NCBI GenBank assembly: GCA_964437465.1
Contig: CAYTGI010000006.1
Location: 1-44,956, forward strand
Reading direction: 5' to 3'
DNA: 44,956 nt
Source of the DNA: an uncultured Candidatus Saccharibacteria bacterium
GTDB lineage: Bacteria; Patescibacteriota; Dojkabacteria; J137
The position numbers and the translations under genes were made by a program. Shown piece by piece: positions 201 through 36,609 of this stretch. Below the pieces are notes generated by a model. It did no database searches and was not told the DNA's origin. It worked only from the letters and a program-made list of their open reading frames with translations. The first letter of the stretch is position 1. The number at the start of each line of letters is the position of its first letter.

Positions 201-2230
201 AGTTGGTTCTTCATGGAAAAAAGCTTAAAGGGCTTTTTGCGTTTGTTCGTTTTAAAAAAGCTGGAGAGAATGCATGGTTAATAATTAAGGATAAAGATGA
301 GTTCGAAGGAAAGGAGATTAAAGATGAAACTTCAGTTCGGTCTGGTAGAACAATTGAAGAAGTTCTGGAAGGAAAAAATGCAATGGATCTTTCAGATGTT
401 AGTAAAAAATGGAAATCCCATACTGTAGAACCAATGCTTGCTAAGCTAGTCGATGAGCCGTTTGATGATGATCATTTTATCTTTGAAGTTAAATGGGATG
501 GATATAGAGCTATTTCTGAAACAGGAAAAAAGACAAAACTTTACTCAAGAAATAATCAGGATTTTAGTAAAGATTATGAGCTGATTTTTAATGAGCTTAA
601 AAAGATAAAGAAAGAAATGGTTATAGATGGAGAAATTGTAGTTCTTGATTATAAAGGAAGATCGGATTTTGATGCTTTACAGGAATATAAGAAAAATAAA
701 GAGGGAGAGTTAGTTTTTTATGTTTTTGATATTTTAAGTTTTGAAGGAAAGGATCTTCGAGATTTGTCTGTAGTTCAGCGAAAAAGAATTCTTGAAAATG
801 TTTTACCTACAAATAATTTAATTAGATACAGCGATCATATTAAAGAAAAAGGTAAGGATTTTTTTAAACTTGCTAACATGGAAAAATTAGAGGGAATGAT
901 TGCTAAAAAAATTGATAGTAAGTACGAAGAAGGGAAGAGGAGTGGTTCATGGCAGAAGATCAAATTAGTTAAAACGGAAGAAGTAATTATCTGTGGCTAC
1001 ACTAAGCCAGAAGGCAAGAGAGATGCTTTTGGTTCATTAGTACTTGGAGTGTATCGTGATGGAGAATTGGTTTACGTTGGAAATACTGGAAGTGGATTTA
1101 CAGATAAAAACCTAAAAGAAGTTAAAGCAAAATTAGATAAATATAAAACTAAAAAATCTCCTTTTAAAGATGAGCCGAGTCTTAATAATTTAGAGACATG
1201 GTTGAAGCCTGAAGTTATTGCTGAAGTTAAGATAAGTGGATGGACTAAGAAAGGAAATATGAGACATGCAATATTTATGGGATTCATAAAAGATAAGAAA
1301 GCAGAAGATATTGAAGGTTATAAACCAGAAGTGGAGCATGATGGTTATGAAAAGAAGGGTAATAAATTAGAGCTTTCTAATCTAAATAAAGTCTATTGGC
1401 CAAAAGAAAAGTATACAAAGGGAGATATGATTAAATACTATGAAGAAATTTCTAAGATCATGATTCCTTATCTAAAAGATCGACCTCAGAATATGAACCG
1501 TTTTCCTAATGGAATAACAGGCAAAAGTTTTTATCAGAAAGATATTGATTCAGTTCCTAAATTTGTAGATGTAGAAACTATTCATTCAGAAAGTAATAAT
1601 CGTGATATCGACTATATTGTGTGTAATAACAAAGAAACACTTCTATATATGGCAAACCTAGGAAGTATAGAGATTAATCCATGGAATTCTCGGGTTGGAA
1701 GTTTAGACAAACCTGATTACTTAATTTTTGATTTAGATGCAAAAGAGAAATATTTTGAAAAGATTATAAAAACTGCACTTGAGCTAAGAAAATTACTTGA
1801 AAAATATGAGATTGATAATTTTGTAAAAACCTCTGGGAAAAGAGGGATTCATATAAACATTCCGCTAAATGCTAAATACGATTTTGATCAGGATAGAACT
1901 TTTGCGGAAATTATTAGTAGAAAAATTGAAGAAAGAATTCCTGATATTGTAAGCCTTGAACGTAATCCGGATAAAAGGAAAGATAAAGTCTATATTGACT
2001 ACCTTCAAAACCGAAGAGGGCAGACAACAGTTGGTGTATATTCAGTTAGGCCAGTGGACGGAGCGCCAGTTTCAACACCATTAAAATGGAAAGAAGTTAC
2101 AAAAAGACTAGATCCAAAGAAATTTAATATTAAGACTATGAGTAAGAGGATTGATAAGGTCGGGGATATGTGGGAGGGAGTGTTAGGTAAGGGAATTGAT
2201 TTGGGGAAAATACTGAAGAAGTTAAAATGA
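131..2230 (+). CDS. ligD: DNA ligase D (end of PE domain, ATP-dependent ligase, primase-like polymerase); the ATG at 131 is probably not the true start
   Basis: EVKWDGYRA (KxDG adenylation motif), [20 protein letters not shown]; POL domain [36 protein letters not shown]. Confidence 0.92.
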
Positions 2231-2278: not shown

Positions 2279-3134
2279 AATTTACCGGTCTTGCAATCGC
2301 TACATACCTATTTGAATTATTACCAGCTGGATAACAGGTAAACAAAGTTAAAGTTCTCTGGTTTTCCTGTCCTGTAATTATTGAAATATCAGTCGGCTCA
2401 ACAATCTTACTTCTAAACATTCTAAATTTATGGGTCTCTCCTTCCATCTCAATTATAATTTCATCACCTACTTTTAAATTAGGAATAAAAGAAAACGCTA
2501 CCTCTGGATCACTTGCCCTAGGATTATAATTAGGACTAGCGCTATGACCATAAATAACAATATTATTATTAACATCTGAAATCGGTAATCCAGTGTTTTC
2601 AAAATGTGCTAGTGAATTTTTAAGTACAGCATTGTAAGCTGATTCTGTTGTTGAGTCGACATTAGCTTGAACAGGTAATCTTTCGATTCCAATTGAGGGT
2701 ATTGAGATATAAAAAGTTCCTCTATAGTTTCTACTTACTGAATCATCTTGCAGAATCTGTTGATCAAATGCTTCTGAAGATACCTCAGCTAATCCAGCAG
2801 GATTAGAGATAAATTTAGATCTATCAATATAATCTCCAGATGTTAGAGTAGTCGTTCCTTGAGCAACGAGTCCGTTTTGTCTTTGTATTTGGTACTGAAT
2901 CTCTGGATAAACGTATTGGAAAATAAAATATAGTCCCAAAGCAATAAAAAAACTAGGAATGATTAAATTCGCTAGAAAAGAAGAGTTAACCATATTCTGA
3001 AGAAAATTATAGCTTTCAGTCGCTCCTGACCATGCTGAAAGCTTACGCTCTTCAACCTCTTCGTCGTTTAACTCAAGGTATTCTTTTTTAGATTTTAAAT
3101 AGTTTTCTGCTTTTCTATAGCTATATAAAGACAT
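2277..3134 (-). CDS. Sortase-family protein with N-terminal membrane anchor
   Basis: His-Cys-Arg triad in IYGHS, LTLFTCYP and NRYVA; TM segment FLANLIIPSFFIALGLYFIF. Confidence 0.85.
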   Translation of the reverse strand: MSLYSYRKAENYLKSKKEYLELNDEEVEERKLSAWSGATESYNFLQNMVNSSFLANLIIPSFFIALGLYFIFQYVYPEIQYQIQRQNGLVAQGTTTLTSGDYIDRSKFISNPAGLAEVSSEAFDQQILQDDSVSRNYRGTFYISIPSIGIERLPVQANVDSTTESAYNAVLKNSLAHFENTGLPISDVNNNIVIYGHSASPNYNPRASDPEVAFSFIPNLKVGDEIIIEMEGETHKFRMFRSKIVEPTDISIITGQENQRTLTLFTCYPAGNNSNRYVAIARPVN

Positions 3135-26914: not shown

Positions 26915-28354
26915 TGTTTTATCTTTAATTGTAAGCACTCTCGTCGGCTCTATCTGTTCAGCAAAATATCTATCGTGAGAAACAAGAATTATTGCACCTT
27001 CATATTCTCTTAATGCTTGTTCGATTGCTTCTTTTGTCTGAATATCTAAATGATTTGTTGGTTCATCTAAAATTAGACATTGGTATTGGTTTTGAACAAA
27101 GATAGCAAAAGTTAATCTAGCTTTTTGCCCAGGGCTCAAACTTTTTACTGATTGATTTTTAAGTTCATCATCAAAAAGAAATTTATCAAGAATTCCAAAA
27201 GAGCTTCCCCAAGAAGCTTGGGTCATTTTAAAAAAATAGTCTTGCACTTTATCATCAATATTAGAAAAATCATTTTCCTGAGCAAAATATACCCAATCTA
27301 GATTATTACCCCATTTGATTTCTCCTGAATTTTGTTTAAGTTCGCCTACAAGTAATTTTATTAAAGTAGATTTACCTGTTCCATTTGGTCCTAAGAGCCA
27401 AATTTTTTCACTTCCATAAATTTCAAGATTTACATTTTCTAAAACGGTGAATCCTTCATTGTACTCAAACTTAAGATTCTCTATCTGAAGTATTCGTTTT
27501 CCTTGATGAACCGAACCCTTTATATCAAGTCCTTGTAATCTAGTTTCTTCATAAGTTGAGATCTCATTTCGTAAAACTTCTCTTTCAATTCTCTTTTTAG
27601 CAGCTTCTACAGCTTTACCTCTTCTTTTTGCATCACTTATCTTTCTAGCATTTGCTAATAATGTCTCTAATTTCTTTCTCTTTTGTTCTTGAAGATTGTA
27701 TTGTTTTTCTCTATCTTCAATATCCCAAGCTTTTTGTTCTAAGAAACTTTCATAGTTTCCTTTGTAGACTTTTAGAGTTTCTTCATCAATCTCAAAAACA
27801 TGATCAATTGTATTATTCATAAACTCTCTATCGTGAGAGATAATTATGCAAATTCCATCAAAGTGTTTAACAAATTTTTCAAACTCAGTTATCCCTGCTA
27901 TATCTAAATGATTAGTAGGTTCGTCAAGTAATAAGATTGTAGGTTCGTCTAACAAGAGTTTAGTTAAATATAGTTTCATCTTTTGGCCCGGACTTAGAGT
28001 TGAGATATGTTTAAACTCATCTATTTCTCCGAACTCAAGTTTTCCTAAAATCTTATTTACCTTCCAAATTTCACTATAGGGATCGTCAATTAAGCTTTCC
28101 AAATATTCACCAAGGTAATCAATTCCATCTATATTCAGATCAAATTCTTGAGGAAGATATGCAATTTTTTCATTAACTAGATGAATCTCACCAGCAAGGG
28201 GTGTCTCTTCACCAGAGATAATTCTAAGAAGCGTAGTTTTTCCAGTTCCATTAAGACCAACTAATCCAACTTTCTCTTTATTACCAAGAATAAAAGAGAT
28301 ATCCGTAAATAAAGGTCTAGCATATTCCATTGTAAGTTTTTCACCTTTGATCAT
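26897..28354 (-). CDS. ABC-F family ATPase (ribosome-associated)
   Basis: Two NBDs (GLNGTGKTT, GPNGTGKST), LDEPTNHLD x2, ISHDR/VSHDR, YKGNY linker; no TM. Confidence 0.93.
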   Translation of the reverse strand: MIKGEKLTMEYARPLFTDISFILGNKEKVGLVGLNGTGKTTLLRIISGEETPLAGEIHLVNEKIAYLPQEFDLNIDGIDYLGEYLESLIDDPYSEIWKVNKILGKLEFGEIDEFKHISTLSPGQKMKLYLTKLLLDEPTILLLDEPTNHLDIAGITEFEKFVKHFDGICIIISHDREFMNNTIDHVFEIDEETLKVYKGNYESFLEQKAWDIEDREKQYNLQEQKRKKLETLLANARKISDAKRRGKAVEAAKKRIEREVLRNEISTYEETRLQGLDIKGSVHQGKRILQIENLKFEYNEGFTVLENVNLEIYGSEKIWLLGPNGTGKSTLIKLLVGELKQNSGEIKWGNNLDWVYFAQENDFSNIDDKVQDYFFKMTQASWGSSFGILDKFLFDDELKNQSVKSLSPGQKARLTFAIFVQNQYQCLILDEPTNHLDIQTKEAIEQALREYEGAIILVSHDRYFAEQIEPTRVLTIKDKTLVDKR

Positions 28355-28404
28355 TGGGAGTTTTTCAGCAAAACATTATCTCACGTTTTACTTAGAGTTG
28401 AGGC

Positions 28405-28938
28405 TTATTTTCTTGACCTACTTCTAAAGAGAAGCTTTTGTTTATCGCTCTCAATAGGAACAAAGTCATCAGCCGCCTCCATAAGCTCCTTATTAGCTGT
28501 TTTTTCAAAAGCGACAACCTCAATTAAACAACCAGCTTGTTGAAGATAAGTTACAACTGGATTAAAGTCACCGTCTCCTGAACAGAGTATTATAGAGTCT
28601 ACTTTAGGAGCTAATCTTACAGCATCCATAGCTATACCTACATCCCAATCTCCTTTCTTAGCTCCACCGAAAAAAGTTTGGAGTGGTTTCTCCTTAGTCT
28701 CAAAACCTGCAGAATTGACTGCATCAAAAAATTCATTTTCCTTCCCATCAGGATCAGCATTTATCACATATGCGATAGCTCTAGTTAGAATTCTATCTTG
28801 AACACAAAAATCTAAAAGATTTTTAAAATTCACTTTTGAGTTAAATAGGTTTTTAGCAGAGTAGTAAAGGTTTTGTACATCTACGAGTACTGCGACTCTT
28901 TGGTTTGGATTTCTTACGATCATGAATAAGTTTAGCAT
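28405..28938 (-). CDS. NYN domain (LabA/DUF88) protein
   Basis: VLVDVQNLYY, KKGDWDVGIAMD, SGDGDF..V, G..IEV.AF. Confidence 0.92.
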   Translation of the reverse strand: MLNLFMIVRNPNQRVAVLVDVQNLYYSAKNLFNSKVNFKNLLDFCVQDRILTRAIAYVINADPDGKENEFFDAVNSAGFETKEKPLQTFFGGAKKGDWDVGIAMDAVRLAPKVDSIILCSGDGDFNPVVTYLQQAGCLIEVVAFEKTANKELMEAADDFVPIESDKQKLLFRSRSRK

Positions 28939-29024
28939 TAAATAGAAAAATAGGTTTATATGTATGGAATTTTTTTACATGCTACAATCTTTTAATATTT
29001 CATTTCATAACAACTAAAATCGAT

Positions 29025-29288
29025 ATGGACAAATTAAATAAAATATTCACCCAAGCGTTTATAGATTTTTCTGAAAGTGAATTTCTTACTGAGCAAAGAT
29101 CAGTTGGCTTCATTAAATATACATATGAGGAATCTTATGAAATTATTCGAAAGACTATATCTTATCTTAGGGATAATGATATTAAAAAGGGGGATAGAAT
29201 TTTAATTTGGTCTTCAAATAAACCTGAATATCTTTTCTTATTTTTTGCATGCGTACTTGAGGGTATTGTAGTAGTTCCAATGTTTTAG
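29025..29288 (+). pseudogene. N-terminal fragment of an AMP-binding (long-chain acyl-CoA synthetase-like) enzyme
   Basis: YTYEESY..I...YL....IKKGDRILIWSSNKPEY...FFAC...GIVVVPM matches the family N-terminus; stops at 87 aa, before the AMP-binding motif. Confidence 0.7.
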
Positions 29289-29339
29289 AAATTTATTAAT
29301 ACTCCGCCTGCTGGATTCGAACCAGCAACCTACCGGTTA

Positions 29340-29740
29340 CACTTAACCTGTAATTTTCATTACAGCGTGGACTATCTCATCACCATACGATTTCTCATTT
29401 AGGTGTCGGGCGCTCTAGGGTGTAAATCACCTAGTCTCTGAACCTTTTCCATTTTGTTGGAACTTGGCTGCGGATTACCTTAGAATTTCCTTAGGCTTCC
29501 CGCAATTCACCCGATGTTCATTCCTGATTTTCATCAGGAAGCTGCGTGATTCCGCTATGTATTTCCCGATGACAGTTTGAATATACAAGAATGCACTTAT
29601 CTAACTCTGTTTTAACCTTTTGCCAAGATCTTGTTAGCCCTCTTTGTGAAAGCCCAAAATCTTTATTTGCACGATCTTTGTATTTTCTATTGTCAATCTT
29701 TCCCATATATAAAAATGGGGATTAATAATAGCTAGTGAAC
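29340..29740 (-). mobile_element. Group I self-splicing intron (401 nt)
   Basis: P GAAUUGCGGGAAG (29496-29508), Q AAUCCGCAGCCAAG (29463-29479), R GUUCAGAGACUA (29432-29444), S GAGAUAGUCC (29369-29380); terminal G; exon U paired to GCAGC guide (29541-29545); GAAA-capped P2 and P9. Confidence 0.93.
29518..29706 (-). pseudogene. Degenerate HNH homing endonuclease ORF inside the intron P1 loop
   Basis: KDFGLSQRGLTRSWQKVKTELDKCILVYSNCHREIH resembles the C-terminal half of Zn-HNH endonucleases; the central CxxC/His segment is missing. Confidence 0.75.
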
Positions 29741-29836
29741 ACAGCCGGTTGCTCTACCGTTGAGCTAAGGCGGATCATTTATGAAATTTAAAAGAGCTGC
29801 TGGAATTATACCAATATGTAGGCAGTTTTAGAAAGT

Positions 29837-30883
29837 TTATTTTTCGTTTAGTAGATAATTTTTAATTATTGGTGAAAAAAGTGATACATTTCTATCCTTT
29901 AATCTTAACAATCCAGTCTCAATTAGAAAATTAGTATCCCAACCACCTTTTATCATTTCTCCATTGGCCACCTTTCTAAGCAAGTTCTCTTGATGCTTTG
30001 TAAGTGAAGAAATTAGTTTTTCTGAAATATTTCTTAAAGCAGGATCTAAACTCACATTCTCAAAAGAATTTAGAGAGCTTGTAAGATATTTCTTGAAAGG
30101 TAAATAGCCACCAGATAGGTTTTGTATTTTGTTTATCTTATTTTTATAAGAGGGACTTAAATATTTTAGTTTTCTTGGAATAAAGCTTTCCGATAATTCT
30201 GTCTCTCTGATATTCATTAAAGATAGTATTACAACTTTTTGAGCAATAAAATTTGCAATTTCCCCATGAGTTTTTTGTTTTATTTTCTTAAACCATTTAG
30301 ATGAGTCCATTGAAAATATAAACTCAATCTTTCCTCTATACCTATCCCTTATAAATTTTAGAAGATTGCTTATAGCTTTAGTATCTTCTGAAAAAAATTC
30401 TTCAGTATCATCTAATATAAAATAAAATTGTTTATGTGGAAAATCCTCTATTAAATTATCTATAGCACTTACTAATTTATCCTTTGACCATTTATCATTA
30501 TCTATTTCAACTGAATTTCTTTTCAATTTTTTTAACCTTTGATATTTATGTAATATTTTTCTATACAAAATCTTTTCAAAAGCAATTGCTCCGGGAGAGT
30601 AGTCTTTTAGCCATATAACTGTTGTATTGCCAGTAGCTTTTTCAATAAGGACTTCGTGAATATCAGTGTAAATAAATTCTATTCTGCTTAGTCTAAGGTG
30701 CCTTCGCCGATATTTAGTGTTAAATGTTAGATATCTTAGTATATGAGTTTTCCCAAATCCAGCTGGAGCTAAAATACAAATGGGGTTTGTGGGCCGGTTC
30801 GTTCTAAATTTGTCAAAGCTAGACATTATTTTGTCAATATTTGACTTGGCATAATTTGAAGGAAATTGCTCCTCTATGTTCAT
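29837..30883 (-). CDS. P-loop (AAA-like) ATPase-domain protein
   Basis: Walker A APAGFGKT, Walker B YFILDD, SGGYL motif and a C-terminal helical/wHTH-like segment with LIETGLL. Confidence 0.7.
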   Translation of the reverse strand: MNIEEQFPSNYAKSNIDKIMSSFDKFRTNRPTNPICILAPAGFGKTHILRYLTFNTKYRRRHLRLSRIEFIYTDIHEVLIEKATGNTTVIWLKDYSPGAIAFEKILYRKILHKYQRLKKLKRNSVEIDNDKWSKDKLVSAIDNLIEDFPHKQFYFILDDTEEFFSEDTKAISNLLKFIRDRYRGKIEFIFSMDSSKWFKKIKQKTHGEIANFIAQKVVILSLMNIRETELSESFIPRKLKYLSPSYKNKINKIQNLSGGYLPFKKYLTSSLNSFENVSLDPALRNISEKLISSLTKHQENLLRKVANGEMIKGGWDTNFLIETGLLRLKDRNVSLFSPIIKNYLLNEK

Positions 30884-31012
30884 TTATAGAGATTATACAC
30901 TGAAGAACTTATTCTGTATAGCTGGATTCCCTTGTCTGTATTGACAGTCGCTTCTTTTTAGCATCAAAGGATAAATATTAGACACCTTAGCTAATTTTAT
31001 CTATTATGAATT

Positions 31013-31816
31013 ATGGCAAGATCATTTCTCAAAGGTAAAGACAAGTTTCATAATATTAGAAAACTAAATATTTTTTTAGGTACAATTCACCTAATTCAAT
31101 CTCTAATTATATTCTCGGTTTCTAACAGTACGTTAGTACAATTCAACTCAGATTACTTTGGCTTACTATCAGGACAAGCTGCTAGGGAATTTGGAAATAA
31201 TTCCCAGGTTCTATTCGAGGTCAGATTAAGTGCATTGGTAGCTTTATTTTTGTTTATCGCAGCTTTAACTCATTTTTTGACTACTTCATCAGGGATAAGG
31301 GAATGGTATGATAAGAATCTTAAAAAGGGGATTGGATATGCAAGGTGGTGGGAGTATGCTTTTAGCTCCTCAATAATGATTGTCATTATCGCTTCTATTG
31401 TGGGAATTACTAACTTCTTTACAATATTAGCTATATTCACCTTAAATGCATTGATGAATATTTTTGGCTTGATAATGGAGAAGACTAATTCTGGGAAGAA
31501 GAAAGATTATGATTGGACCAGCTTTATCTATGGGGTTATAGCCGGGATTGTACCTTGGATAATAATATTTAGCTATTATTTTGGAGCACTTTCATTAGCC
31601 ATTCCAACTGCAGCTTTCCCTCTCGGTGGATATGTGATATGGATACTTGTCATTGATTTTGTATGGTTCTCAGCATTTGCTTTAAATATGTATGCTGGTT
31701 TCAGAAAAATAGGACCGTGGAAAAATTATTTGTATACTGAAGTTGTTTACAGTTTCTTGAGTTTATTCTCTAAATCAATTCTTGCTTGGCAAATCTTCTT
31801 AAATCTACTATCTTAG
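31013..31816 (+). CDS. heR: Heliorhodopsin
   Basis: 7 TM; LGTIHLIQ (helix A His), ALTHF (helix B His), RWWEYAFSSSIMIV (counterion Glu), YSFLSLFSKSILAWQ (retinal-binding Lys). Confidence 0.93.
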   Translation: MARSFLKGKDKFHNIRKLNIFLGTIHLIQSLIIFSVSNSTLVQFNSDYFGLLSGQAAREFGNNSQVLFEVRLSALVALFLFIAALTHFLTTSSGIREWYDKNLKKGIGYARWWEYAFSSSIMIVIIASIVGITNFFTILAIFTLNALMNIFGLIMEKTNSGKKKDYDWTSFIYGVIAGIVPWIIIFSYYFGALSLAIPTAAFPLGGYVIWILVIDFVWFSAFALNMYAGFRKIGPWKNYLYTEVVYSFLSLFSKSILAWQIFLNLLS

Positions 31817-32211
31817 AATGAATTTTTAAGTTTGTATTCTTTGTTTAACTGTATCAGGTATCCTATCCCACCAATAGAGAAGAGAAGAAAGAATATACCA
31901 AGTCCAGCTAATAGAAAAGAAGTATTTTCTAAAAGTGTAGGTGAGTTATCATCTTGATTAATACTAGTACTCATACCAGCAACTCTTCCATTGTCACTAA
32001 CCTGTACGTCAGAATTTTCTTCATCTCTATCAAATATTTGACTAATTGCTTCTATAGGTTCTTGCAATGCTTCTGGATCAGATTTATGAAGAGTAATTAC
32101 CTGTGCTGGAATAACCAAAAACACCATAACAGTTATTATTATAACTAATATTTTGGGAACGCTTATATCTATAAGTGGTTCTTCTAAATGGTATATATGT
32201 GTATGACGCAT
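31813..32211 (-). CDS. Hypothetical two-TM membrane protein
   Basis: Two hydrophobic segments flanking an acidic loop containing GRVAGMST. Confidence 0.7.
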   Translation of the reverse strand: MRHTHIYHLEEPLIDISVPKILVIIITVMVFLVIPAQVITLHKSDPEALQEPIEAISQIFDRDEENSDVQVSDNGRVAGMSTSINQDDNSPTLLENTSFLLAGLGIFFLLFSIGGIGYLIQLNKEYKLKNSF

Positions 32212-32267
32212 AAGTAAATATTAATACTAGTATATTAAAACATACTTAAAGTTTTTTTGTTAGATAA

Positions 32268-33338
32268 TTAACAACCTAAATCTCTACAAACTCCTACTAG
32301 ATGTGAGTCATAATCAACATTGAAAAAAGTTTGTCCATCAGGTGTATGGTAGAAAAAGTAAAACTCAGTATCTTTAGGATTTAAAGCAGCATCAATAGAC
32401 TCAATTCTAGGATTATTGATAGGTGTAGGCATTAATCCTGGATAAATGTAAGTATTATAAGGGCTGTCTATCTGCTGATCTACAAGAGTTACACCAGCAT
32501 CACTTTTTCCAGTTATGAAGTTAACAGTTGCGTCAGATTGAAGGGCTATTCCGTCACTCATTCGATTATGGAATACGCTAGAGATTTCTGATCTATCATC
32601 CCAAGCACTTGCCTCTTTCTCTATTACAGAAGCTAAGATTACAGCTTCATATAAATTATTAATATTTCCGCTTGGACTTGAAAAGCTACCTATATTCTCT
32701 TCGACTTTTACCTTAAAGTTTTTAACCATAATTTCAATAATTTGAGCAGTAGTCATACCTTGATCGATTCTATATGTATCTGGATATAAAAAGCCTCTTA
32801 GTGGCTTTCCTTCAGGTAGATAATTATCTAAAAAGCTTCTAATTGACTGATCAGAGAATTGAATCTGTGAAGGGTCCTCAACTAATTCAAAAAACTCTGC
32901 TTCACTGAATTGCGTTAGTTCAGCTAGTTCTGCACCGAGGATAGATGATACATCTTCATATTTAAGTCCTTCTTTAATAGTTACCCATATAGCAGGTTTA
33001 AATGTTCCTTCTTCAAGCGTTGTTATAAGCTCTGGTACGGTGTATCCAGCAGGTATTTCGTATGTACCTACTTTGATATTTGGAGAAACTCTCTCTGTTC
33101 GAAGGTATATCTGAATAGGGATCGTACTATTTATATATCCAGCTTCACTTAAATAGTTAACTACGTCTAAAAATGTATCCCCTTCCTCTACAATTAATTC
33201 GAAAGCCTTCGAATTAAACTCTCCATTTATTGAGTTTTTATACCAGTTGTTAATACTAAAGAATGCTAAAAGAAATATTCCAAGTATTAGTCCTATTATT
33301 AATAATAAATTTGATCTTTTTTTCTTTTTTTCTTCCAT
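32268..33338 (-). CDS. mltG: Endolytic transglycosylase MltG (YceG)
   Basis: N-terminal TM, VTIKEGL, GFLYPDTY, ILASVIEKEA, LQSDATV, SPYNTYIYPGLMPTPINNP, FYFFY. Confidence 0.95.
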   Translation of the reverse strand: MEEKKKKRSNLLLIIGLILGIFLLAFFSINNWYKNSINGEFNSKAFELIVEEGDTFLDVVNYLSEAGYINSTIPIQIYLRTERVSPNIKVGTYEIPAGYTVPELITTLEEGTFKPAIWVTIKEGLKYEDVSSILGAELAELTQFSEAEFFELVEDPSQIQFSDQSIRSFLDNYLPEGKPLRGFLYPDTYRIDQGMTTAQIIEIMVKNFKVKVEENIGSFSSPSGNINNLYEAVILASVIEKEASAWDDRSEISSVFHNRMSDGIALQSDATVNFITGKSDAGVTLVDQQIDSPYNTYIYPGLMPTPINNPRIESIDAALNPKDTEFYFFYHTPDGQTFFNVDYDSHLVGVCRDLGC

Positions 33339-36168: not shown

Positions 36169-36609
36169 GGGGGATGCTAAATTCGACAATATATTAAAGG
36201 TTTTAAAGCAAGTCAGGGGATTGATTTGATCCTGCTGCGAACAAAAACAAATCGCCAAATAAATAACAACCCTGTTGTTAATGCTCTAAATAAAGCTGCT
36301 GATGCAGTTGGAAACTTCCTATTCGGAACACCTAACTACAACATCGCTTAATTTTAGGGTGTATGCTGAAAACAAAAAGTAAGCATGCCGTTTATATGAT
36401 TCTTTCCTGATGGATGAATATAAACGCCCAATTAGTCAGGATGCAATTAATATTTTTGATTTATAAATATTAATCAAGACTTTAATAAATCCTAAAAAGC
36501 TCATTTTTGCTTAGTTTTTATTAGCTTTTTAGAAAAATAAACTAAGATAAGCTTGTAACAACTTTATCTCATTTGATTTATTGGACACGGGTATCCGTCA
36601 TCTCCACCA
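36169..36609 (+). ncRNA. ssrA: tmRNA, one-piece, with reduced D-loop and T-arm; predicted tag (A)NNPVVNALNKAADAVGNFLFGTPNYNIA at 36265-36351
   Basis: Acceptor GGGGAUG/CAUCUCC-A-CCA with G3-U70; UUCGAC; helix 2 pairings CAAUA/UAUUG, UAAAGGUU/AACUUUA, GCAAG/CUUGU; pk1 GAUUUG/CAAAUC; tag ends IA-stop. Confidence 0.92.

Follow-up and report, generated by a model that had tools for sequence, protein, structure and literature searches.

A split tRNA-Asn gene

The window analyzed here is positions 1 to 44,956 of contig CAYTGI010000006.1 (assembly GCA_964437465.1) of an uncultured “Candidatus Saccharibacteria” bacterium. Its minus strand carries a tRNA-Asn(GUU) gene that is interrupted within the anticodon by a 401-nt group I intron, and a large loop of this intron holds most of a degenerate homing-endonuclease gene. 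The precursor has the following parts.

29302..29774 (-): pre-tRNA-Asn(GUU), both exons plus the intron, identified from the sequence and by ARAGORN on the product spliced in silico
29741..29774 (-): 5′ exon, 34 nt, UCCGCCU...ACCGGCUGU, the last base being U35 of the anticodon; the CUGU end recurs in 41/41 relatives with both exons
29340..29740 (-): group I intron, 401 nt, GUUCAC...UUAAGUG, identified by Rfam RF00028 and by covariation within its family
29302..29339 (-): 3′ exon, 38 nt, UAACCGGU...AGGCGGAG, the first base being U36; relatives have the same ...GUG/UAA junction

The full 5′ exon (29774..29741, -; UCCGCCUUAGCUCAACGGUAGAGCAACCGGCUGU) comprises the acceptor arm, the D arm, the 5′ half of the anticodon stem, and C32, U33, G34, and U35. 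The full 3′ exon (29339..29302, -; UAACCGGUAGGUUGCUGGUUCGAAUCCAGCAGGCGGAG) continues with U36, A37, and A38, followed by the 3′ half of the anticodon stem, the variable loop, the T arm, the acceptor arm, and the discriminator G at 29302; CCA is not encoded. Joining the exons in silico gives a canonical 72-nt cloverleaf, called tRNA-Asn(GUU) by ARAGORN, with the GUU anticodon, U1-A72, and G73 of a bacterial tRNA-Asn. In Escherichia coli tRNA-Asn, G73 and the anticodon are identity elements for asparagine.

The gene is invisible to standard searches: with default settings, ARAGORN reported no tRNA anywhere in the 45-kb window, and at the locus itself the Rfam tRNA model returned nothing even at E ≤ 1. 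A Logan contig assembled independently from the same run is 100% identical over 28026..32523. Two run searches for the locus returned one DNA run, from a microbial-mat metagenome, and a promoter and terminator scan gave no signal above chance.

The intron core

Searching the whole window with the Rfam group I model RF00028 (Intron_gpI; gathering score, 50 bits) gave a match over the full model (positions 1 to 253) at 29600..29348 (-), with 99 bits and an E value of 1.5e-24; a local search of the same match gives an E value of 4.9e-26. The P, Q, R, and S elements are near letter for letter with the Rfam consensus (AAUUGCGGGAAG, UAAUCCGCAGCC, GGUUCAGAGACUA, and AUGAGAUAGUCC). Every helix of the catalytic core from P3 to P9 is present, and six helix groups covary among 25 relatives.

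29540..29545 (-): internal guide sequence GCAGCU, forming P1 with GGCUGU (29746..29741); G29545 pairs with U35 (29741)
29522..29539 (-): P2 hairpin UCCUGAU-GAAA-AUCAGGA; 7/7 pairs change on both sides in relatives, with 96.6% of cells paired
29508..29514 (-): P3 5′ strand UCGGGUG, pairing with 29412..29406; 100% paired and near-invariant
29442..29503 (-): P4-P5-P6-P6a domain; P4, P6, and P6a covary, and the domain is recovered by the minimum-free-energy (MFE) fold
29503..29499/29474..29470 (-): P4
29495..29493/29480..29478 (-): P5
29468..29466/29444..29442 (-): P6
29462..29458/29451..29447 (-): P6a
29432..29436 (-): P7 5′ strand GACUA, part of the R element, invariant in 25/25 and pairing with 29374..29370
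29419..29431 (-): extra P7.1-like hairpin GGUG-AUUUA-CACC between P7 and the P3 3′ strand, found in the family alignment and the MFE fold
29406..29412 (-): P3 3′ strand CGCCCGA, completing a 7-bp P3
29381..29405 (-): P8 hairpin CACC...GGUG with inner stem AUGA/UCGU; outer stem 100% paired, with two covarying pairs
29370..29374 (-): P7 3′ strand UAGUC (S element), invariant
29348..29365 (-): P9 hairpin CUGUAAU-GAAA-AUUACAG; 6/7 pairs change on both sides
29340..29340 (-): terminal G (omega G); GUG precedes UAA in relatives with a readable 3′ junction (44/46 loci)

Past P9, the intron ends in GUUAAGUG, closing with the terminal G at 29340. The P7 helix, which would bind guanosine, is the same as that in the Azoarcus row of Williams’ alignment (10.1101/2020.01.27.920355). 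The MFE fold of the whole precursor recovers P2, P3, P4 to P6, the P7.1-like hairpin, P8, and P9 (z = -6.76 relative to shuffled sequences), and this z-score, together with the covariation described below, places the group I signal far beyond chance. Because a conserved hairpin (29431..29419) separates P7 from the 3′ strand of P3, where IC3 introns have no helix, and because J8/7 reads AUGAGA, the intron was not filed under IC3; the remaining core is IC3-like. The subgroup was judged by layout, and a formal assignment was not made.

These results agree in most respects with a first-pass annotation that a model had made from the letters alone. It had given 29302..29774 as the locus, which is exactly the pre-tRNA on the minus strand; it had recognized a group I intron with P, Q, R, and S elements and placed it between positions 35 and 36 of the anticodon of a tRNA-Asn, where exon joining and the register of P1 also put it. 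The P7 strands, the terminal G, the U·G pair at the splice site, and a GUU anticodon restored by splicing were all named correctly, the check that it proposed with an Infernal group I model is the RF00028 match above, and it foresaw that standard tRNA finders would miss the gene. Its P3 (AUCGGG/CCCGAC) had the right strands and five real pairs but included an A-C mismatch at one end and left out a U·G and a G-C pair at the other, the true helix being UCGGGUG/CGCCCGA. The guide sequence 195 nt downstream and the degenerate HNH open reading frame (ORF) in L1 were overlooked.

Relatives at the same site and covariation

A search pattern based on the core of the window intron (AGCGCCCGAC, then 8 to 38 bases, then GATGAGATAGTCCAC) matched 46 loci among GTDB species genomes and one IMG/VR contig, and a narrower pattern matched six metagenome contigs. 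All of the pattern loci compared align with the window copy. Every genome locus with both exons in the fetched DNA (41/41) reads CUGU/...GUG/UAA in a tRNA of the form UCC...G73, and the 44 of 46 loci whose 3′ exon lies inside the fetched sequence all read ...GUG/UAA. Intron lengths in the family range from 216 to 898 nt. The hosts are Oscillatoriales cyanobacteria, Anaerolineae and other Chloroflexota, Actinomycetota, Saccharibacteria, Woesebacteria, Berkelbacteria, and other Patescibacteria. The first-pass annotation had pointed to 35/36 introns in Asn/Asp tRNAs as recently reported for Patescibacteria and took this one for a probable new instance of a rare class. That the class had been reported before is correct (Asn.4Ug of Williams 2020), but it is not specific to Patescibacteria, since it extends to Oscillatoriales, Anaerolineae, Actinomycetota, several lineages of the candidate phyla radiation (CPR), and a huge viral contig; nor is it very rare, with 46 species-level genomes recovered by one exact-match pattern.

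Some host labels of metagenome-assembled genomes (MAGs) are probably binning errors. The exons of locus L021, labeled “Actinomycetota,” are identical to Oscillatoriales exons; L036, labeled “Pseudomonadales,” has the same exons and intron type as the Patescibacteria locus L046; and L034, with the same label, has the same short intron type as L036 and L046. These three are likely mis-binned contigs. The window copy belongs to a CPR-type subfamily, and the cores closest to its own are those of L036, L038, L046, and L056. A metagenome scan for this subfamily gave six loci, all of the short L036/L046 type and none with the window exons or the deleted ORF described below, and a viral scan with the window 5′ exon gave no matches. 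An intronless allele of this exact tRNA-Asn did not come up among the loci that the genome and metagenome scans recovered.

Covariation was assessed on an alignment of 25 members from which the variable L1 had been removed and onto which the window structure was projected. Of the cells, 90.9% are paired, compared with 80.0% in shuffles and 29 to 46% with slid partners. On both sides, 35 of the 63 pairs change, a count reached in 0/500 shuffles, and the covariation score is 0.323 versus 0.134. The covarying helices are P2, P4, P6, P6a, P8, and P9, and the invariant ones are P3, P7, and the four CUGU/GCAG pairs of P1. Homology and pairing in the family are directly observed. The window copy matches 103 of 108 family-conserved columns; of the five deviations, two fall in pairs that are compensated, another two in the P6a loop, which aligns poorly, and the fifth at an unpaired core base. 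The ribozyme of the window copy looks intact.

Several relatives have features of their own. The viral contig (L054; IMGVR_UViG_3300032782_000001) is 436 kb long, with 36 tRNA genes in 15 kb. At 1926..2227, it has a UCC...G73 tRNA-Asn that is split, at the position seen in the window, by a 227-nt intron of this family, and an uninterrupted tRNA-Asn (2787..2861) lies 560 nt downstream of the split one. The contig is a possible vehicle for spread across phyla. In the metagenome contig L048 (Ga0209211_10156070), P4, P5, and the 5′ strand of P6 are missing, and UUGGGUGA is fused directly to GCCCAUGAACC...; either the assembly is wrong here or the intron is dead and the tRNA-Asn a pseudogene. Four CPR-type metagenome contigs (L048, L049, L052, and L053) share a conserved ORF, ending approximately in ...KIRGWMAGILG..., that stops about 40 to 85 nt before the 5′ exon of the split tRNA-Asn.

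A long-range P1

The guide sequence starts 195 nt into the intron, directly 5′ of P2, and P1 is a long-range pairing across L1. The GGCUGU/GCAGCU duplex has a free energy of -8.0 kcal/mol. Its CUGU/GCAG pairs are invariant in 25/25 sequences, the G31-C pair is present in 20/25, and GCAG stands directly 5′ of P2 in every family member, whatever the length of L1 (6 to ~355 nt). The U·G pair of the 5′ splice site is formed by U35 (29741) and G29545 and draws its support from conservation, not covariation. A local alternative for P1, GGCUG/UAGCU, was rejected: it lacks a U·G pair at the splice site, it is weaker (-5.1 versus -8.0 kcal/mol), and it is unconserved in relatives.

Probable splicing competence

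The locus is very probably a tRNA-Asn(GUU) gene with a 401-nt Asn.4Ug group I intron between U35 and U36, the intron being competent to splice but immobile. Expression and splicing are what we infer from the sequence, and the chemistry would be that expected from membership in the family. The gene would be transcribed as a single precursor, the intron would fold into the standard P1 to P9 core, and pairing of the 5′-exon end GGCUGU with GCAGCU 195 nt downstream would set U35 in a U·G wobble. Free guanosine would attack after U35, the terminal G (29340) would dock in the G-binding site of P7, and the exons would be ligated. Ligation would restore GUU and the 72-nt tRNA, with the junction reading ...ACCGGCUGUUAACCGGU..., and CCA would be added posttranscriptionally.

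A number of observations weigh against this account. P1 has to form across a 195-nt insertion, within which the local GGCUG/UAGCU pairing (-5.1 kcal/mol, without a U·G) might compete with it. A search for P10, in which the 3′ exon would pair with bases upstream of the guide sequence, gave nothing convincing (-2.0 kcal/mol), and the exons are probably held together by the tRNA’s own anticodon stem. P1, P3, and P7 are invariant and are therefore backed by conservation, not covariation. A conserved adenine in J2/3 is C at 29516. The two run searches gave no RNA run holding the locus. A second, intact tRNA-Asn may exist elsewhere in the genome, in which case the split copy could be decaying.

The last point leads to the best of the alternatives, in which the intron is a decaying, nonsplicing relic in a tRNA-Asn pseudogene and an uninterrupted tRNA-Asn elsewhere does the work. 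We regard this as unlikely. Decay would agree with an endonuclease gene that is already degenerate, with the long L1 and absent P10, and with the changed J2/3 base, but it would not lead one to expect that every core helix and every position invariant in the family is intact, with 103/108 conserved columns matching, or that both exons still form a perfect cloverleaf. Dead relatives do appear to exist, as in L048 without P4-P5 and the P6 5′ strand, and the viral contig has an intact tRNA-Asn beside the split one; in contrast, no second tRNA-Asn occurs in any 8-kb bacterial locus around a split tRNA-Asn gene. Small CPR-type genomes usually have single tRNA genes, which also counts against a replacement copy.

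A degenerate HNH gene in L1

29546..29740 (-): L1, an insertion of 195 nt that separates the guide sequence from the 5′ splice site and holds most of the ORF; delimited by comparison of L1 among relatives
29518..29706 (-): 62-aa ORF, a degenerate HNH homing-endonuclease gene, identified with phrog_2255 and homologue alignments
29670..29671 (-): junction of a 132-nt (44-codon) in-frame deletion relative to the L019 ORF, approximate to a few bases, placed by pairwise DNA alignment and by P0002 and P0005
29581..29583 (-): codon TAT (Tyr42) at the first Cys of the second CxxC, a position that is Cys in 39/40 other family ORFs (LVCANCH to LVYSNCH)

L1 is 6 nt long in L034, L036, L038, and L046, about 35 to 65 nt in loci of the cyanobacterial type, and about 310 to 355 nt in relatives that bear an ORF. 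A Microgenomates-group MAG (L055) and a Logan contig (L056) have tRNA-Asn introns with an intact ORF at the same place in L1. The family ORFs are mostly 101 to 119 aa long (two calls are shorter) and carry CxxCGYDxC...FHH...CxLVCxNCHxEIH, a complete HNH motif in the intact relatives and an incomplete one in the window ORF. The full-length ORFs match the HNH families phrog_2255, phrog_3106, and phrog_35854 of PHROGs with E values of 4e-27 to 1e-16 and remain below threshold with the Pfam HNH model (15.7 to 18 bits versus a cutoff of 21.4). A search of 5.8 billion sequences returned 48 homologues, nearly all of 97 to 109 aa and some with a precomputed PF01844 assignment, and the 62-aa form is a singleton among the 49 family proteins. 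At another point in the intron, the cyanobacterial loci L009 and L028 have a 215-aa LAGLIDADG_2 protein (intron nt 212..859; E = 1.6e-25) inserted between the P7 5′ strand and the P3 3′ strand, and their L1 stays short.

The window ORF matches phrog_2255 (“HNH endonuclease”) with an E value of 5.5e-12 over profile positions 132 to 176 of 211 only, whereas the intact ORF of L019, the Saccharibacteria locus that served as the reference for the deletion and for divergence, matches positions 89 to 173 with an E value of 4e-27. The deleted segment (...REYL...KCSVCGYDKC..ALDFHHLE) contains the first CxxC, a zinc knuckle, and the catalytic HH. The closest proteins, P0002 (75% identity) and P0005 (69%), confirm the deletion, reading DNRxYxDR, then 44 residues, then KDFGLSQRGLTRSW. 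MAFFT placed the N terminus of the window ORF on the FHH region; this was rejected, since the DNA alignment and both proteins match it to the N-terminal DNRxYxDR. Pfam and NCBIfam gave nothing meaningful for the 62-aa ORF, and a PDB profile search with the ORF family gave only marginal matches that were not used (the HNH region of a group II intron maturase, E = 0.011; McrA, 0.17).

Both lesions are plain in the DNA. Because the first zinc knuckle and the HH are gone and the second knuckle has a Tyr in place of a Cys, the endonuclease is probably inactive and the intron most likely splicing competent but immobile; the L1 gene would formerly have spread the intron into intronless tRNA-Asn genes, and the window copy is most likely late in the homing cycle.

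At its 3′ end, the gene doubles as ribozyme. The last 10 codons traverse the guide sequence and P2, with the UGA stop (29520..29518) in J2/3, and ACG CAG CUU CCU... encodes TQLP..., which recurs in most homologues; in L055 and L056, too, the guide sequence (GCAGCU) and P2 are translated into a ...QLP... tail. Because of this overlap, one stretch (29545..29518) serves both RNA structure and coding, and the protein tail is therefore dictated by the ribozyme. Within the searchable library, a literature search found no paper on the HNH gene of the Asn.4Ug class or on its overlap with the guide sequence. Compared with L019, the C-terminal 36 codons have a nonsynonymous divergence (pN) of 0.16 and a synonymous divergence (pS) of 0.93, which on the sequences compared shows past selection at the protein level and has no bearing on selection after the deletion.

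Two further readings concern this ORF. The broader one is that the ~105-aa L1 HNH proteins are an undescribed minimal homing-endonuclease family targeting the tRNA-Asn anticodon loop, present in at least four bacterial phyla and a huge phage and ending in a QLP tail that translates the guide sequence and P2, and that the 62-aa form is kept for a nonnuclease role such as aiding the long-range P1; as a whole, we rate this as improbable, slightly more so than a relic intron. The narrower one, that the 62-aa ORF has been kept as a functional mini-protein, such as a maturase-like splicing helper that binds RNA or DNA and derives from the endonuclease, is very unlikely. It could draw on a frame that stays open over 62 codons at 34% G+C (an estimated chance of about 1% in random sequence), on a deletion that is exactly in frame, and on the low pN relative to pS over the C-terminal 36 codons. 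That low ratio, however, may wholly predate the deletion, and the last 10 codons are held by the guide sequence and P2 and not by the protein; moreover, the deleted form occurs only once among the 49 proteins, a zinc-ligand Cys is lost, and no Pfam or NCBIfam family matches. An inactivated endonuclease gene remains the preferred interpretation.

Splice register

The requirement for a U before the 5′ site and a terminal G leaves the register ambiguous (CU/GU/GUUC ... AAG/UG/UAA), because a register 2 bases upstream, with anticodon UGU, has both as well. ARAGORN with introns allowed (-i) types the window gene as tRNA-Thr(tgt) i(33,401), and on 46 related loci, it reports Thr in 22, Asn in 17, selenocysteine (SeC) in 2, and nothing in 5. 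Its choice of register is arbitrary, since loci with identical exons are called Thr in one case and Asn in the other (e.g., L002 versus L003). The U1-A72 pair and G73 are the bacterial tRNA-Asn pattern known from E. coli; they occur in all family members, whereas the tRNA-Thr genes in the fetched loci begin with GCC. The exon-scoring pipeline of Williams (10.1101/2020.01.27.920355) files the class as Asn.4Ug. The Asn register is fixed by this filing, the Asn-type ends, and the U35·G pair of P1. It is barely credible that the sites lie 2 bases upstream (5′ exon ending in ...GGCU, intron in ...UUAAG) and yield tRNA-Thr(UGU), since U33 would then form a Watson-Crick pair with A while the U·G wobble characteristic of a group I 5′ splice site, invariant in the family, is at U35, and the tRNA-Thr register was rejected.

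Surroundings of the split gene

The window has a G+C content of 33.6% and also encodes RpoD, RNase Y, IleRS, a sortase, LigD, and MltG/YceG. Together with the tmRNA and heliorhodopsin genes below and with closest intron relatives in Patescibacteria and Microgenomates MAGs, these features would fit a CPR bacterium. An 87-aa N-terminal fragment of an AMP-binding (PF00501) enzyme (29025..29288, +) ends 14 nt short of the 3′ end of the tRNA gene, and the remainder of that gene is not nearby, which suggests an old rearrangement or deletion beside the tRNA. About 1.2 kb from the tRNA gene, 31013..31816 (+) encodes a 267-aa heliorhodopsin (PF18761). A 440-nt transfer-messenger RNA (tmRNA) gene lies at 36170..36609 (+); it scores 52.8 bits with Rfam against a gathering score of 47 and is unreported by ARAGORN, which also seeks tmRNA. 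By eye, a putative long tag frame follows the pseudoknot-1 side and ends in ...NYNIA before UAA.

Implications

Genomes that carry such a split gene look as if they lacked tRNA-Asn, and ARAGORN -i mis-types it as Thr or even SeC, with distorted estimates of completeness and coding capacity for CPR-type MAGs (compare PMC8172020). Should the organism have no other tRNA-Asn, all of its asparagine decoding would hinge on a ribozyme reaction. One intron family occupies one site in Cyanobacteria, Chloroflexota, Actinomycetota, Patescibacteria, and a 436-kb viral contig, and its endonuclease gene is intact, degenerate, absent, or of another type from copy to copy, offering a natural series of the homing cycle and of transfer across phyla. 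The present analysis adds four points: P1 is long-range, the HNH gene is degenerate, the family is broad, and one copy lies in a huge phage. The significance is modest: current understanding is unchanged, and the class was already cataloged.

Comparison with known systems

Lui et al. (2021) reported that some tRNAs in circularized genomes, CPR genomes included, carry group I introns and are hard to detect, and tRNAscan-SE 2.0 was not designed to detect group I introns (PMC8450103). The classical bacterial tRNA group I introns are Leu.3Ug, Arg.5Ug, fMet.2Ug, and Ile2.5Ug. According to Williams (bioRxiv 2020; 10.1101/2020.01.27.920355), the settings of such introns now number 21, and the seed alignment includes Pam37.Asn.4Ug, Wba81.Asp.4Ug, and Mba143.Tyr.4Ug.

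The window intron is a member of the cataloged Asn.4Ug class: the host is a tRNA-Asn, the intron follows the fourth nucleotide of the anticodon loop (35/36), and U(-1) and the omega G are in place. It shares with Pam37 the CUGU/UAA site after the fourth loop base, U(-1), the terminal G, a visibly homologous core (UCGGGUGAAUU, AGCGCCCGAC, and GAUGAGAUAGUCCAC, with the end xUAAGUG), and the extra hairpin between P7 and the P3 3′ strand; a hairpin at this position also appears in the Lys.2Ug, Asn.4Ug, Phe.2Ug, and Leu.1Ug rows (10.1101/2020.01.27.920355). The pattern loci include Phormidium-type introns that, by eye, are approximately base for base with the Pam37 row. Unlike this cyanobacterial, Phormidium-like seed, the window copy belongs to the CPR-type subfamily and has a 195-nt L1 with an endonuclease remnant. 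The same alignment gives the seed a short local P1 (UGUA/ugua), whereas the guide sequence found here throughout the family is GCAGC directly 5′ of the hairpin before P3.

The IC3 introns compared were those of Azoarcus tRNA-Ile(CAU), Anabaena and other cyanobacterial tRNA-Leu(UAA), Agrobacterium tRNA-Arg, and cyanobacterial tRNA-fMet. Like them, the window intron is a small group I ribozyme in the anticodon loop of a bacterial tRNA, for which the same chemistry would be expected, and its P4, P6, P7, and P8 junctions (AAUU-P4, GCCAAG, AGAGACUA, CACCUAA...UGGUG, and AUAGUCC) are near-identical to those of the Aol6.Ile2.5Ug row in Williams’ alignment. It differs from them in its tRNA, in its loop position (4 versus 3, 5, 2, and 5), in the P7.1-like hairpin and the sequence of P3, and in J8/7, which is AUGAGA rather than AAGGGA or AAGGCA. 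The IC3 introns have been shown to self-splice, whereas splicing of the window intron is predicted from its sequence.

The tRNA-fMet intron of Synechocystis PCC 6803 encodes I-Ssp6803I and is likewise a bacterial tRNA group I intron with a homing-endonuclease gene giving mobility. The presence of its ORF is mentioned in PMC5733544. The gene in the window differs in being of the HNH type, lying in L1, overlapping the guide sequence and P2, and being degenerate. I-Ssp6803I belongs to the PD-(D/E)XK family. The closer likeness in motif is to phage HNH homing endonucleases in PHROGs, with which the family ORFs share CxxC...HH...CxxCHxxxH; unlike those enzymes, the family is very small (~105 aa) and intron encoded in tRNA-Asn, and its copy in the window is without the N-terminal half of the motif.

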